DNA of 64,000 nucleotides from a virus (lineage: Duplodnaviria; Caudoviricetes), in the IMG/VR virus record IMGVR_UViG_3300020036_004254; one strand, given 5' to 3'. The notes beneath the pieces were generated by a model. The model made no database searches. It had not been told where the DNA came from and saw nothing but the letters and a program-made list of their open reading frames with translations. The translations under genes and the position numbers were made by a program. The number at the start of each line of letters is the position of its first letter. Positions within the stretch are counted from its first letter, which is position 1. Shown piece by piece: positions 48,712-63,135 of this stretch.

Positions 48712-48877
48712 TTAGAACACATTTTATACTCTGGACAGAACGGAAATCTGAAGTGACCAAGTCGTCACTTGAGAGCAAGTCTGGTACACAAGGTTCAAGT
48801 TTCTAGTCAGGTTTCCGGTGTTTCTTCGGCCCCTTTCTGGTTACCAAACTGGAAAGGGGCTTCAGATTTTAGGGGGC

Positions 48878-48906
48878 TTGACAAACGCAGGAAGGGGGTG
48901 TAAGAT
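48878..48906 (+). promoter_or_regulatory. Sigma70-like promoter at the start of the RNA island
   Basis: TTGACA-N17-TAAGAT. Confidence 0.75.
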
Positions 48907-49093: not shown

Positions 49094-49168
49094 GGGAGGT
49101 TCGCCTAGCGGCTATGGCACTTGTCCTACACACAAGTATAACCGTGGGTTCGAGTCCCACACTTCCCA
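49094..49168 (+). tRNA. tRNA-Val(TAC), C33
   Basis: GGGAGGT/ACTTCCC acceptor; CTTGT-ccTACac-ACAAG; TTCGA T-loop. Confidence 0.88.
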
Positions 49169-49407: not shown

Positions 49408-49476
49408 TTTTCTGTGGTGAAATGGAGAACACCCTCTGCTAGCGGGGGATTGTGGGTTCGAGTCCCACCAGAAAGA
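49408..49476 (+). ncRNA. tRNA-shaped RNA with collapsed anticodon loop
   Basis: TTTCTG/CAGAAA acceptor, D arm, canonical T arm; loop only 4-6 nt (GCTAGC). Confidence 0.6.
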
Positions 49477-51689: not shown

Positions 51690-51761
51690 GCTCTACAAAC
51701 ATAGATGGCGATGTACGGGTTTTGTAAACCTGAAAGGGCAGTTCAAGTCTGCCGTGGAGCT
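51690..51761 (+). tRNA. tRNA-Thr(TGT)
   Basis: CGGGT-ttTGTaa-ACCTG; GCTCTAC/GTGGAGC. Confidence 0.88.
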
Positions 51762-54621: not shown

Positions 54622-54834
54622 GTGAAAAACAAAAAGATGTCCAGAACAAAAGTGATAAAGAATCTTCGTGCTATCAGAAGTTTGCTAACCCGTTTGCACA
54701 ACAATGGAAACATTATTGGGGTGGTCACGGAAGAAGACCAAGCCTTGACAGAAGCCATTCGGCTGATTAAGTTAGATATGAAGTCTATCAGCGATAAGAA
54801 GAAATTTGAGAAGTTTGGCATTCGGATATGGTGA
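54622..54834 (+). CDS. Hypothetical basic protein
   Basis: GAGG RBS, GTG start. Confidence 0.5.
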   Translation: MKNKKMSRTKVIKNLRAIRSLLTRLHNNGNIIGVVTEEDQALTEAIRLIKLDMKSISDKKKFEKFGIRIW

Positions 54835-54842
54835 GGACTAAC

Positions 54843-55331
54843 ATGGATATGATTCAGAAGGCTCTGTACTTTGCCGCCAAGAAGCACGGTGACCAGAAAT
54901 ACAGTGACATGCCGTACATGGTACACATTGCGTGTGTGATGAGTGTACTTCAGCGGTACAAGGCTCGTGAGGATGTGATTGTGGCAGGTATCTTGCACGA
55001 TGTGCTGGAAGACACTGACACCACGTATGAGGAGATTGACAACCTGTTTGGTGACCGTGTGGCCAAGTTGGTGTTGGCCGTTACGAACCCAAAAGAGGGT
55101 AGTCGTAAGCAGAAGCACGAGATTCAGTATCCCAAGATTCGTGAAGCGGGGGTGTGGGCGGTTCAGGTCAAACTGGCTGACCGCATCGCCAACGCCGGAA
55201 GCGGTGGCAAGCTTGGGATGTACCAGCGGGAACACGAGACGTTCCGCAAGCACCTGTACGACCGTGGGGATATCATGATTCAGGCCATGTGGAACGAACT
55301 TGAAGAGATTGTTATGGTTCCGGGGTTCTAG
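54843..55331 (+). CDS. HD-domain (p)ppGpp hydrolase-like (SpoT-HD/Mesh1)
   Basis: AAKKHGDQ, PYMVH, LHDVLEDT, VKLADRIAN. Confidence 0.88.
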   Translation: MDMIQKALYFAAKKHGDQKYSDMPYMVHIACVMSVLQRYKAREDVIVAGILHDVLEDTDTTYEEIDNLFGDRVAKLVLAVTNPKEGSRKQKHEIQYPKIREAGVWAVQVKLADRIANAGSGGKLGMYQREHETFRKHLYDRGDIMIQAMWNELEEIVMVPGF

Positions 55332-55715
55332 ATGAAAATCTTCTGTCTAGAAGCTGATGTAGTAAACCCATCCGGGAGAGTCTATCCAAAAGCCGTCTTG
55401 GAAAAGGCGGTAGCGGATTACACCGAAGAGTTTGTTGGGGGTAATAGAGCGTTGGGTGAATTGGGTACTCCTGACGGTCAAGTGGTAAACCTCAAAAATG
55501 TATCACATATCGTTCGTGGGTTTCATTGGGAGGGGGATAAGTTGTTTGCTGACATAGAGGTGTTAAGTACACTCAGTGGAGCTATGGTAAAATCGTTGTT
55601 GGCCAACGGTGTGAAACTACGTGGTTCCATTAGAGGACTGGGTTCGTTGGTGGACTCAATTGTCCAAGACGACTATACCATTTCTTCTATCGATGTGAGG
55701 TTAGATGACAACTAA
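55332..55715 (+). CDS. Truncated gp21 prohead-protease paralogue lacking the catalytic His
   Basis: NPSGRVYP, ALGELGTP (vs GELGHP), VSH, GSIRGLGS (vs VSSRGLG). Confidence 0.8.
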   Translation: MKIFCLEADVVNPSGRVYPKAVLEKAVADYTEEFVGGNRALGELGTPDGQVVNLKNVSHIVRGFHWEGDKLFADIEVLSTLSGAMVKSLLANGVKLRGSIRGLGSLVDSIVQDDYTISSIDVRLDDN

Positions 55716-55977
55716 AACCTTCTACGCCATCTACGATGTGCCTAGCAAGAAGTTCAAAGGTCGTGGGAACGTTCGCGGAGTCCGGTGGACTGATGAACCA
55801 ACCCAGACGTATGACACCATATCACGGGCCAAATCAGCACTCAAGGCTCATCTAAAAGTATGGAACAGATATCCTTGGCTTTCCTCGGTTCAACAGCGTG
55901 ATAAATACTTGATTGTCATTCCGGTGACCGTTAGTTGGGAAGACCATCAAGAAGTGTTAGAAGGAATGTTCGAGTAG
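55705..55977 (+). CDS. Hypothetical protein
   Basis: GAGG RBS. Confidence 0.6.
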   Translation: MTTKTFYAIYDVPSKKFKGRGNVRGVRWTDEPTQTYDTISRAKSALKAHLKVWNRYPWLSSVQQRDKYLIVIPVTVSWEDHQEVLEGMFE

Positions 55978-55980
55978 GGC

Positions 55981-56009
55981 TTGACAAACGAAGGAAGGGT
56001 CACTAACTT
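55981..56009 (+). promoter_or_regulatory. Sigma70-like promoter upstream of the large ncRNA
   Basis: TTGACA-N17-TAACTT. Confidence 0.7.
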
Positions 56010-56016
56010 CCTTTCA

Positions 56017-57013
56017 TGAAGCGGGGAGAACGGGGTGCCTAATCCTCGTCAAGGCGATGCGACACCAGCTATGCCTTGTGGTCCAAGTGTGGACGCCCTG
56101 CACGTTTTCTGAAGGAGTTGTCCTTCAGAGTGGTGGAGGTTCGCTGATTAACAAATGAAAGATGGGGTGTTTGGACTCCATAAGAGCAGTGTGTCGCAAG
56201 ACGCATAAAGGTGTGTATCTTTGTAAGCACCGCTGGCCAAAAGCCAGTTCACCCAAACAAGTCTGACCGAGGGGGTATTCGAACACTCCCGCTTCACTGT
56301 AACGGTGGAGATAGGTCTGAAGAGTAGGTAGAGAAGAAAGCCTCATCGACGCTCCGCAAGGAAAGCGGGTGGGGAAGACTGACAGGTGGTGCTGGGTACT
56401 CTACACAACCAACTATTCGAAGACGGATTGGTAACAGATATACACGCATGTCCAAGGGGTTGCACCCAAGGGCTAGGTGTGATGTCGAAAGGTTTGAGCG
56501 GGGTGCTATTCCAAATAGCCTCGCCCTAAATCTTGACAACAGATTAAGTACCCGGAGCAAGGGGAAAGGTAGCCGTGGAGTGTTGCATTCTGGTATCCAA
56601 AAGATACTGGAACAACTGAGGAAGCACTTCACTCAAAGTTCGTTTAGGGTTAGAAGCCCACAATAATTTGGATATTGCCAAACACAAAAAAGGAAAGACT
56701 TCCTCGGTCTTAACGCGAAAAGTAGCATAATGCCTTCCCGTAAGGAAGAAGGCAGATTCGATGGCCCCAAGCCTGACAATCTTTCATGCAGACTCGCACA
56801 TAATCTCCTAGCGGAGACTAACGGCTCGCAAGGTCGGTGGTAGAGAAAACGTGGAGTAGCGTAAGATGACGGTCACACTGTTCAGACCTTAAAAAGAACT
56901 GCTTCGGTTGTCTACTTCCTTGCGGAAGTGGAAAAGAGGGGAAAGGCTGGTGGGGACACTGGCTCATAATCCCTTGAAAGGACGACTACGGAAGGTGTAT
57001 TCTCAGCCTCCCA
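56017..57013 (+). ncRNA. ~1-kb large structured ncRNA, GOLLD-like
   Basis: No credible ORF; many hairpins with GNRA-type loops; 3' ACTTCC/GGAAGTGGA..AAGGTGTATTCTCAGCCT resembles the recalled GOLLD 3' domain; sits in a phage tRNA cluster. Confidence 0.65.
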
Positions 57014-57022
57014 CAATACTAC

Positions 57023-57098
57023 AGCGCATCGGACTCAAGGTCAGGGTCGCCAGTTTCGGGAACTGGATAACAGGTGGATTCGATTTCCACATGCGCTA
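57023..57098 (+). tRNA. tRNA-Pro(CGG), atypical acceptor
   Basis: CCAGT-ttCGGga-ACTGG; AGCGCAT/ATGCGCT. Confidence 0.78.
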
Positions 57099-57189
57099 TC
57101 GGTGGGTCCGACGAATTGCGGTGTGATGGCCGAATGTTCTGAGGATAAGCCGTACATCAATCATTATCATCACAATATTAGGCGATGTA

Positions 57190-57253
57190 TTTCTCGTGGA
57201 CGAATGGCAAGTCGGCGTAGAACGCATGGCGGGTTCGAATCCCCCCGAGAAAA
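57190..57253 (+). ncRNA. tRNA-shaped RNA with miniature anticodon arm
   Basis: TTTCTCG/CGAGAAA; GAC-GAATGGCAA-GTC; GCG-TAGAA-CGC; GGG-TTCGAAT-CCC. Confidence 0.65.
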
Positions 57254-57493
57254 TGGATGGAGAGAGCAAGAAACAATAACAAAAGAATCACCGTGGATGC
57301 GCGGTATAAGGCTTTTGTGAAAACTTCTGTCAGACATGACGGCTCGCCATCCTCTACTGGAATGGAACGGGGACCATTAGTCAGGGAAAAGCGAAGAGAT
57401 AACTTCAAAATGCTCGGTACCGTGATGACGATATCAAATTCTCGGCAATATGTCTACAGAGCATACGTGGTCTGTAAAACCTCTATTGACTAC

Positions 57494-57566
57494 GCCAACT
57501 AAGTTTACGTGGTCGGAACGTCTGTCTGAAGAGCAGAATGGCTCAGTTCAATTCTGAGAGTTGGCA
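57494..57566 (+). tRNA. tRNA-Phe(GAA)
   Basis: TCTGT-ctGAAga-GCAGA; GCCAACT/AGTTGGC. Confidence 0.88.
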
Positions 57567-57642: not shown

Positions 57643-57709
57643 TTTTAGGTTGTAGAGATATTCAAACGTATAAATACTCTTTGGTTAGTTATCCCAAGGA
57701 GATTTGAAT

Positions 57710-58318
57710 ATGACGATGACCAGAAAAGAAGTTTGTGTATTAGCGGGTGCGGGTGCCGCAAAATACAACAGAAAACAAAAACAGAAAAGAATATCAGAAT
57801 ACAATAAAACGCCAACACGCTGTATGACTTGTACAGCCCCACTTGTATATGAAAAAAGAAAGTATAAATTCTGTTCGAAAAAGTGTGCAGGGGTGGAAAA
57901 CGGCAAAAGATTTCCAAAAAGAAAAAGAGTGCCGCGCTGGTGTGTATACTGCAAAAAAGAAACCAAAAAATATGGAAAATATTGTGATAAGAAGTGCGAG
58001 TTTTCTCACAAAGACGAAAAAAGATTAGAAAAACTGAAAAATGGATTGGTGAAAGATAGAAGAGTTTTGAGAACCTTTTTGATAGAAACTCGCGGATATA
58101 AGTGTGAGTTGTGTTCAAATAATGGGTCACACAATGGTTTAAAATTGATTTTAGAAATTGACCACGTTGATGGAAATTCTGATGATTCTTCTCCAAAAAA
58201 CATAAGATTTTTGTGCCCCAATTGTCACAGTCAACAACCGACTTCTGCTGGTGGCATTAAAAACAAAAAGTTTCACAAAAGAAACCTGATAATGCACCGA
58301 AGAAGTATGCCGCTATAG
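57710..58318 (+). CDS. HNH homing-type endonuclease with zinc fingers
   Basis: CELC..LEIDHVDG..NIRFLCPNCHSQ; own TATAAATA at 57669; AT-rich. Confidence 0.85.
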   Translation: MTMTRKEVCVLAGAGAAKYNRKQKQKRISEYNKTPTRCMTCTAPLVYEKRKYKFCSKKCAGVENGKRFPKRKRVPRWCVYCKKETKKYGKYCDKKCEFSHKDEKRLEKLKNGLVKDRRVLRTFLIETRGYKCELCSNNGSHNGLKLILEIDHVDGNSDDSSPKNIRFLCPNCHSQQPTSAGGIKNKKFHKRNLIMHRRSMPL

Positions 58319-58443: not shown

Positions 58444-58516
58444 CGCGGGAATGGAGCAAAAGAGGCTCGCTTGGCTCATAACCAAGAGACGGTAGGCGCA
58501 ATCCCTACACCCGCTA
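58444..58516 (+). tRNA. Initiator-like tRNA-fMet(CAT), divergent
   Basis: CGCGGG start with C1 mismatch; CTTGG-ctCATaa-CCAAG; aberrant T-loop CGCAATC. Confidence 0.7.
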
Positions 58517-62446: not shown

Positions 62447-63067
62447 ATGGGTGTATGTAAGCATTGTGGTAAAGGTTTTGATATTTCAGAAAAACCAAAA
62501 GGTTGGATGGCTAATCACACAAGATGGTGTTCTGAAAATCCAAAATCAAAGATTCACAAAGACAATATGATTTTTGCTCGTTCTTGCATTAAAGAACACA
62601 GCAATCAACACATAAAGGCCAAAAAAATAGGAAGTGGCGGCTTTCTTGTTTCAAAGGAAACAAGATTGAAATTGTCGATAGCTGGTTCTAAAAGAAAACA
62701 CACCAAAGAAAGTATTGAAAAAATGAGTGTTTCTGCTCGTCTTTCAAAACACAGAAGACTGAGAAAAAAAATGATTGAGTATAAAGGAATTATGCTTGAT
62801 TCGTCTTGGGAACTAGCTCTTGCAAAAAGATTAGATAAACTTGGTGTGTTGTGGGTCAGACCTGAACCTCTCGTCTATTTCGATAGACAAGGAAAAGAGA
62901 GACATTATTTCCCTGATTTTTTTCTTCCAGAATACAACACATTTCTTGACCCCAAAAATCCACAAGCATATAAAGTACAAAAAGAAAAGATAGACCTTCT
63001 AAACGAACAGTTTTCAAACATTTTCTTCATCAGAACGTTATCTGATGTTGAGAAATATACGCCCTAG
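62447..63067 (+). CDS. Zinc-finger/NUMOD3-like plus PD-(D/E)XK endonuclease
   Basis: CKHC..H..C; KHTKESIEKMS; DSSWE..YFPDF..DPK; TATAAATA at 62414. Confidence 0.78.
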   Translation: MGVCKHCGKGFDISEKPKGWMANHTRWCSENPKSKIHKDNMIFARSCIKEHSNQHIKAKKIGSGGFLVSKETRLKLSIAGSKRKHTKESIEKMSVSARLSKHRRLRKKMIEYKGIMLDSSWELALAKRLDKLGVLWVRPEPLVYFDRQGKERHYFPDFFLPEYNTFLDPKNPQAYKVQKEKIDLLNEQFSNIFFIRTLSDVEKYTP

Positions 63068-63135
63068 TATTGGCCCTGACTTCTAATCAGAAGGCGCATA
63101 ACTGGAATATGGGGGTTCGAATCCCTTCTGGGGCA
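63061..63135 (+). tRNA. Rearranged tRNA-Arg(TCT) with D-loop-like sequence after the anticodon arm
   Basis: GCCCTAG/CTGGGGC; CTGA-ctTCTaa-TCAG only ~8 nt after the acceptor; AACTGGA follows it; canonical T arm. Confidence 0.7.

Follow-up and report, generated by a model that had tools for sequence, protein, structure and literature searches.

We examined a 64,000-nt stretch of DNA from an uncultured phage (IMG/VR record IMGVR_UViG_3300020036_004254; hereafter the window), in which a large island of RNA genes contains a stretch of about 1 kb that very probably encodes a GOLLD RNA. Analysis with ARAGORN revealed 23 tRNA calls between positions 49094 and 62388. The gp46 homologue of the phage is 40-44% identical to gp46 of cyanomyoviruses, and the phage is thus only distantly T4-like. 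The T4-type late promoter word TATAAATA was identified at nine sites in the window, all on the + strand (5373, 9017, 32050, 38956, 46180, 48540, 50571, 57669 and 62414), compared with 0.92 expected. The tRNA calls, the gp46 homologue and the late promoters agree with the placement of the element in a phage and beside tRNA genes in the initial annotation. Several protein genes also lie on the + strand around the element. Upstream, these are two genes inside the RNA island, an HD_4 (SpoT-type HD) hydrolase (54828-55331) and a fragment-sized ORF of 127 aa assigned to Peptidase_S77 (gp21-like and prohead-protease-like; 55332-55715), and a 90-aa ORF with no assigned role (55705-55977). Downstream, and also inside the island, is an HNH endonuclease gene (57704-58318), which is directly preceded by one of the late promoters.

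The tRNA finders disagreed on seven genes of the island. Five were called by ARAGORN only (starting at 51690, 57023, 59789, 60107 and 62314) and two by Rfam only (58445-58515 and 63061-63135), and this disagreement suggests that the island holds several non-canonical tRNAs or tRNA-like RNAs. A tRNA with the anticodon CUA (49408-49476) was labeled tRNA-Pyl, an amber suppressor, by ARAGORN and scored 36.5 bits with Rfam; the long ORFs of the window look intact under code 11, with no sign of TAG recoding. A tRNA(CUA) was also seen in the IMG/VR locus L009 (601-670), approximately 41 nt upstream of its GOLLD. In the 395 nt between the tRNA-Pro-like gene described below and tRNA-Phe (57099-57493) no Rfam match was found. 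This interval holds a T-arm-like word, GGGTTCGAATCCC, at 57231-57243, and an 81-aa ORF at 57257-57502 had no Pfam match.

Positions 56017-57013 had been described in the initial annotation as about 1 kb without a credible ORF. Stop codons were present in every frame (8-22 per frame), and the longest ORFs with an ATG, GTG or TTG start were 72 aa on the + strand (56448-56666) and 112 aa on the - strand (56294-56632). None of the four longest ORFs matched PHROGs. The stops in all frames and the lack of PHROGs matches together bear out that description. The whole 997 nt folded better than dinucleotide shuffles of the same sequence (z = -3.6; 0 of 20 shuffles folded as well). Five hairpins had been named in this region, and all five were located. 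Four of them are conserved GOLLD helices: TGTGTC-GCAA-GACGCA (56190-56205) and CTGGC-CAAAA-GCCAG (56233-56247) lie in the 5' domain and display compensatory changes, while TTCTGGTATC-CAAAA-GATACTGGAA (56588-56612) and ACTTCC/GGAAGT (56914-56919/56924-56929) lie in the 3' domain defined by Rfam. The remaining hairpin, TCTGAAGGA/TCCTTCAGA (56108-56116/56121-56129), is located in an unconserved leader.

The family identity of the element was examined with Rfam 15 over the whole window. This analysis revealed a match of the GOLLD model RF02032 to 56575-57009 on the + strand at 196.1 bits (E = 9e-54), well above the curated gathering score of 150 bits. The alignment covered model positions 1-416 and was untruncated, and it was the sole non-tRNA Rfam match in the window. 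A local scan of 55900-57500 at E ≤ 1 recovered this match and gave none to any other Rfam family, including ROOL and OLE, and a blastn search with 55900-57100 against GenBank phages also gave no match. In the RF02032 alignment, CAAAA closes the first hairpin of the ring domain, as the conserved 3' domain is also called, and the 3' end contains GGUGUAUUCUCAGCCU; the window copy carries a terminal GGTGTATTCTCAGCCT there (56994-57009). The GOLLD family was reportedly described by Weinberg et al. in 2009. Its assignment here had originally rested on 3'-domain motifs; it is now supported by the covariance model and by the homology and covariation of the 5' half, and the proposed comparison of the GOLLD, ROOL and OLE models gave a match for GOLLD and none for ROOL or OLE.

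The RF02032 model covers the conserved 3' domain only, and the 5' half was therefore tested separately. A conserved 16-mer from the GOLLD 3' end was used to collect 118 viral contig stretches. When 56017-56574 was searched as a single sequence with nhmmer, it matched five of these loci (L006, L063, L089, L097 and L009) at E values of 7e-9 to 6e-8. The matches sit directly upstream of Rfam-scored GOLLD 3' domains, and the matched part of the window begins at approximately 56154-56161. In all, matches to the 5' domain were found in the 5' flanks of eight GOLLD 3' domains that Rfam confirms, and RF02032 scored 157-230 bits on eight relatives. An iterated 5'-domain profile found 15 loci. When longer flanks were used, the closest relative was L148, located on a 343-kb contig, which aligned over the whole RNA (E = 4e-42). 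A strict 5'-domain pattern matched L119 alone, and L167, found by an exact 26-mer of the 5' domain, was no closer than L148. A search of IMG/VR for syntenic relatives with the proteins of the 90-aa ORF and the HD-domain ORF found none. Permuted tmRNA genes (RF04321/RF01850) were observed within a few kb of the GOLLD in three loci (L119, 2136-2594; L084, 2259-2440; L118, 5975-6358).

A consensus fold was derived from a nine-sequence alignment of the 5' domain. It comprises 83 pairs in 13 helices, and 65 of the pairs display compensatory changes. In this fold 91.5% of the cells could pair, compared with 69.1% in shuffled alignments and 37-41% when the partners were slid by 1-3 columns; 0 of 500 shuffles reached any of five fold measures. 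In the window the 5' domain, which forms the cap in solved cages, spans 56161-56574 (+), with the conserved profile extending over 56163-56550 and the first hairpin at 56162-56181. Homology and covarying helices thus mark the 5' half as an authentic 5' domain of GOLLD, belonging to a recurrent subclass.

These results bear directly on two other explanations of the region. The first is that it is protein-coding or carries small ORFs such as those at 56294-56632 (-) and 56448-56666 (+); ORFs of 72-112 aa do exist mechanically, but they are set against the stop codons in each frame and the absence of PHROGs matches, and the credible genes of the window are all on the + strand. Moreover, the RNA family model and the pair covariation explain the sequence fully, and covariation acts on base pairs rather than codons. 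We regard a coding function as having a negligible probability. The same holds for a new class of large RNA that merely resembles GOLLD, or for a ROOL or OLE RNA. Nothing speaks for such a class except the unconserved leader, while RF02032 is matched over its full length with a score that exceeds the gathering threshold by 46 bits, and ROOL, OLE and the other Rfam families were unmatched in 55900-57500 at E ≤ 1; this explanation is already refuted. Taken together, these data support the conclusion, to which we assign a probability of about 93%, that 56161-57009 (+) holds a GOLLD RNA gene of full length with both domains, carried in the tRNA island of a phage that is uncultured and only distantly T4-like. 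The RNA joins a described family and does not represent a new kind.

The conserved body of this GOLLD begins with the first hairpin (56162-56181), ends at 57009 with the terminal motif and measures 849 nt (56161-57009). The initial annotation had considered the element longer than the usual type of roughly 800 nt, possibly with extra 5' domains. Neither suggestion was supported: the env-38 GOLLD, which forms a 14-mer cage (PDB 9MEE), measures 833 nt (10.1101/2024.12.08.627333), so the conserved body is of normal GOLLD length and not oversized, and the additional 145 nt represent a leader without detectable homologues. A shorter member, the S. agalactiae GOLLD, measures 700 nt (10.1101/2024.12.08.627333, PMC12990946). 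After the first 3'-domain hairpin the window copy contains a linker (approximately 56637-56700) that aligns to a variable stretch of RF02032, and no tRNA was detected inside this linker by Rfam or ARAGORN. Of the eight relatives for which an RF02032 score is given above, seven had a complete tRNA in the linker; it was absent from the window copy and from L119/L149. Within 56640-56700 of the window, the linker hairpin UUUGG-AUAUUG-CCAAA aligns to the T-arm of the linker tRNAs in L148, L063, L009 and L006, and the window linker may be the decayed remnant of an embedded tRNA.

A sigma70-type promoter, TTGACA-N17-TAACTT, is located at 55981-56009 (-35 at 55981-55986 and -10 at 56004-56009), 180 nt upstream of the first GOLLD helix. 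The presence of a sigma70-like promoter ahead of the element, as originally proposed, was supported at the level of the motif. The pattern TTGACW-N17-TANNNT occurs at 21 sites in the window compared with 1.04 expected (the largest value in any shuffle was 5), with 20 of the 21 sites on the + strand and positions ranging from 9069 to 62188. Many sites of this promoter family share an extended form, a (G/C)-rich stretch followed by TTGACAAAC. The promoter at 55981 and the site at 48878 have the form GGGC-TTGACAAACG in common; over 22 nt, 55978-55999 and 48875-48896, the latter at the head of the tRNA island, are 95% identical. A generic sigma70 scan missed 55981-56009 because its -10 element TAACTT matches TATAAT at only three of six positions; the promoter and terminator scan itself performed at chance level. 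When 11 relatives were examined, TTGAC-N16-18-TAnnnT was found 42-212 nt upstream of the first helix in six. A sigma70-type promoter of its own is usual for a viral GOLLD of this 5'-domain subclass. From the spacing, transcription is predicted to start near A56016. No T4-type late promoter lies between 50571 and 57669, and as judged by these motifs GOLLD therefore sits behind a host-type promoter and not a late one.

At its other end the GOLLD is followed by a tRNA-Pro(CGG)-like gene (57023-57098, +), which begins 14 nt after the GOLLD 3' end and was called by ARAGORN only. Inspection by hand revealed a 7-bp acceptor stem, a 5-bp anticodon stem and a UUCGAUU T-loop, together with several oddities (C8, an A53-U61 pair and a 7-nt variable loop). 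With the Rfam tRNA model, a search of 496 nt at E ≤ 10 still did not report this gene, and the description that fits its sequence best is that of a non-canonical tRNA or tRNA-like gene. Thus, of the initial statement that the element ends just before tRNA-Pro, the adjacency stood, whereas the tRNA identity was given by ARAGORN only, with Rfam silent. Among 110 viral GOLLD loci, 25 have a same-strand tRNA whose start is no more than 20 nt from the GOLLD 3' end. It is therefore reasonable to propose that tRNA processing releases the 3' end, and the GOLLD 3' end in the window is probably made by processing of the tRNA-Pro-like gene; since the Rfam tRNA model misses this gene, its recognition by RNase P is uncertain. 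The generic scan, at chance level, found no terminator-like site on the + strand after the GOLLD and before 58000. The sole + strand terminator-like site, at 56087-56103, is weak and lies inside the leader.

The 5' leader of approximately 145 nt (56016-56160, +) lies outside the conserved GOLLD body. Analysis of 56017-56160 revealed that it folds better than shuffled sequences (z = -3.1). Its first part may form a cloverleaf-like, four-way fold (56021-56100; z = -2.4 for 56017-56104), in which the third arm has a 4-nt loop and not a T-loop. The 9-bp leader hairpin follows (56108-56129), extending to 10 pairs in the MFE fold (56107-56130), and after it is a candidate boxA-like word, CGCTGATTAACAA (56142-56154), 8 nt before the first GOLLD helix. 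We take the core consensus of the E. coli rrn boxA to be GCTCTTTAACAA. The region 56143-56154 matches this E. coli consensus at 10 of 12 positions.

Searches with nhmmer and blastn identified no homologue of the leader in 119 viral GOLLD loci, in L148, L149 and L167, or in the rest of the window, and the nhmmer alignment to L148 enters the leader only at low posterior probability. No tRNA-like or other Rfam match was found in 56000-56170 at E ≤ 10. A metagenome scan with TCTGAAGGA-N4-TCCTTCAGA returned 28 matches, none of them related to the locus by nhmmer, and these were rejected as chance matches to the palindrome; a scan of viral contigs with the boxA-like 16-mer returned 14 matches, all unrelated. 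Words with up to two mismatches to boxA were not enriched in the window (8 compared with 6.2 expected), and upstream of viral GOLLDs they were rare (3 matches in 62 distinct loci). Such words were seen in L148, where TGTTCTTTAAAAA lies just after the promoter, and in L100, where ACTCTTTGACAA lies 44 nt before the 5' domain. Leader length among the relatives ranges from less than 10 to approximately 175 nt, and nothing in the leader is therefore part of the conserved architecture. The longest of these values was observed in L148, with approximately 175 nt of structured sequence between the promoter and the first helix (z = -5.5). At 894-1106 of L148 the order is a strong TTGACG-N17-TACAAT promoter, TGTTCTTTAAAAA, a tRNA-like fold of approximately 92 nt and the GOLLD. 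This tRNA-like fold has a canonical T-arm and was uncalled by ARAGORN.

What the leader contributes can be explained in more than one way. The mature RNA could be approximately 1 kb long, with 56016-56160 retained on it as a further structured 5' domain by which the cage is decorated or altered. The folding of the leader relative to shuffles and the structured leader of L148 are consistent with this proposal, but the lack of any homologue among the loci searched and the spread of leader lengths argue against it, and covariation gives it no support because no close relative was found. We consider an extra domain improbable. Alternatively, the leader could be a control or processing module. In an antitermination form, similar in style to that of rRNA operons, the hairpin at 56108-56129 would act as a boxB-like element and CGCTGATTAACAA as a boxA-like element; in a processing form, the cloverleaf at 56021-56100 would be cut by host RNases to free the GOLLD 5' end, and the two forms could be combined. 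This proposal draws on the 10/12 boxA match right after a stable hairpin and close to the first helix, on the boxA-like words in the L148 and L100 leaders, and on the cloverleaf-like fold, with a tRNA-like element at the same place in L148. Set against it are the near-chance number of boxA-like words in the window, their rarity upstream of other GOLLDs, the E. coli origin of the consensus, the silence of Rfam and the third cloverleaf arm without a T-loop. We view a control or processing role as unlikely, though less so than an extra cage domain. A broader proposal would join these elements into a functional, lineage-specific front module (tRNA-shaped at 56021-56100 and boxB/boxA-like at 56108-56154) that couples GOLLD synthesis to host rRNA-type antitermination and tRNA-processing enzymes; the linker would then be what is left of a tRNA once embedded there. 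This we hold to be a long shot, on a par with the extra domain.

For the two-domain GOLLD gene, the features of the locus are compatible with the following sequence of events. Host RNA polymerase would start near 56016 and produce a single precursor comprising the leader, the GOLLD and the tRNA-type genes downstream. Cleavage by RNase P where the tRNA-Pro-like gene begins would free the GOLLD 3' end, and the unconserved 145-nt leader would be either trimmed or kept as a dispensable tail. By analogy with solved relatives, the RNA of approximately 850 nt would then self-assemble without protein into a closed dihedral cage of 12-14 copies, with the 5' domains as caps and the 3' domains as rings, as in the env-38 and S. 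agalactiae GOLLDs. Assembly of GOLLD RNA into cages is documented (10.1101/2024.12.08.627333, PMC12990946), and for the window copy we infer cage formation from these relatives. The known oligomers differ, with 10-, 12- and 14-mers described (PMC12990946), and helices P9, P11a-c and P21b set the 14-mer versus the 12-mer stoichiometry (10.1101/2024.12.08.627333). In the only genetic test, as cited in PMC7567579, a prophage GOLLD accumulated during lytic growth and was dispensable for phage production, and any statement on function is weak for this reason. The linkage to tRNA genes is constant, and on this ground a function connected with the supply of phage tRNAs or with translation during infection can be offered as a tentative guess, one that we think is more apt to be wrong than right.

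Comparison with the GOLLD family as reviewed (PMC12990946) revealed no family-defining difference in the window copy. It has the full 3' domain, immediately preceded by a structured 5' domain of approximately 400 nt; its variable linker follows the first hairpin of the 3' domain, and it is located in a phage tRNA array. Its particulars are the tRNA-free linker, a dedicated promoter followed by 145 nt of unconserved leader, and the distantly T4-like phage that carries it. The 5'-domain subclass is common to the window copy and the IMG/VR loci L148, L149/L119, L063, L009, L006 and L167, as is the 3' domain (156.9-229.8 bits in the seven scored, with L167 unscored). Most of these relatives lie in tRNA arrays with a sigma70-like promoter upstream, and their leaders differ from that of the window copy in length and sequence. 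The window copy and env-38, compared by description, agree in size and two-domain layout. Two loops used for contacts in the env-38 structure (10.1101/2024.12.08.627333) also occur in the window copy: the A-rich one on the first 3'-domain hairpin (CAAAA in the window) and the terminal GUAnUCUCAG loop. Both RNAs adjoin a tRNA-type gene, env-38 being downstream of tRNA-Met whereas the window copy is upstream of the tRNA-Pro-like gene. ROOL and OLE RNAs are similarly large, ORF-free and multi-helical, and ROOL is also phage- and tRNA-associated and cage-forming; however, their sequences and folds are unrelated, and neither has an Rfam match in the window.

The value of these findings lies mainly in annotation: a described, cage-forming RNA family accounts for the largest stretch without genes in a phage tRNA island. 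It adds one further GOLLD from a T4-like phage and leaves knowledge of the family unchanged. At the comparative level, about one in four viral GOLLDs has its end no more than 20 nt from a tRNA, and GOLLD leaders are variable. If the doubtful proposal of a tRNA-linked front module were true, GOLLD genes would be built and matured within the tRNA-processing pathway, and this would provide a handle on the function of the family.
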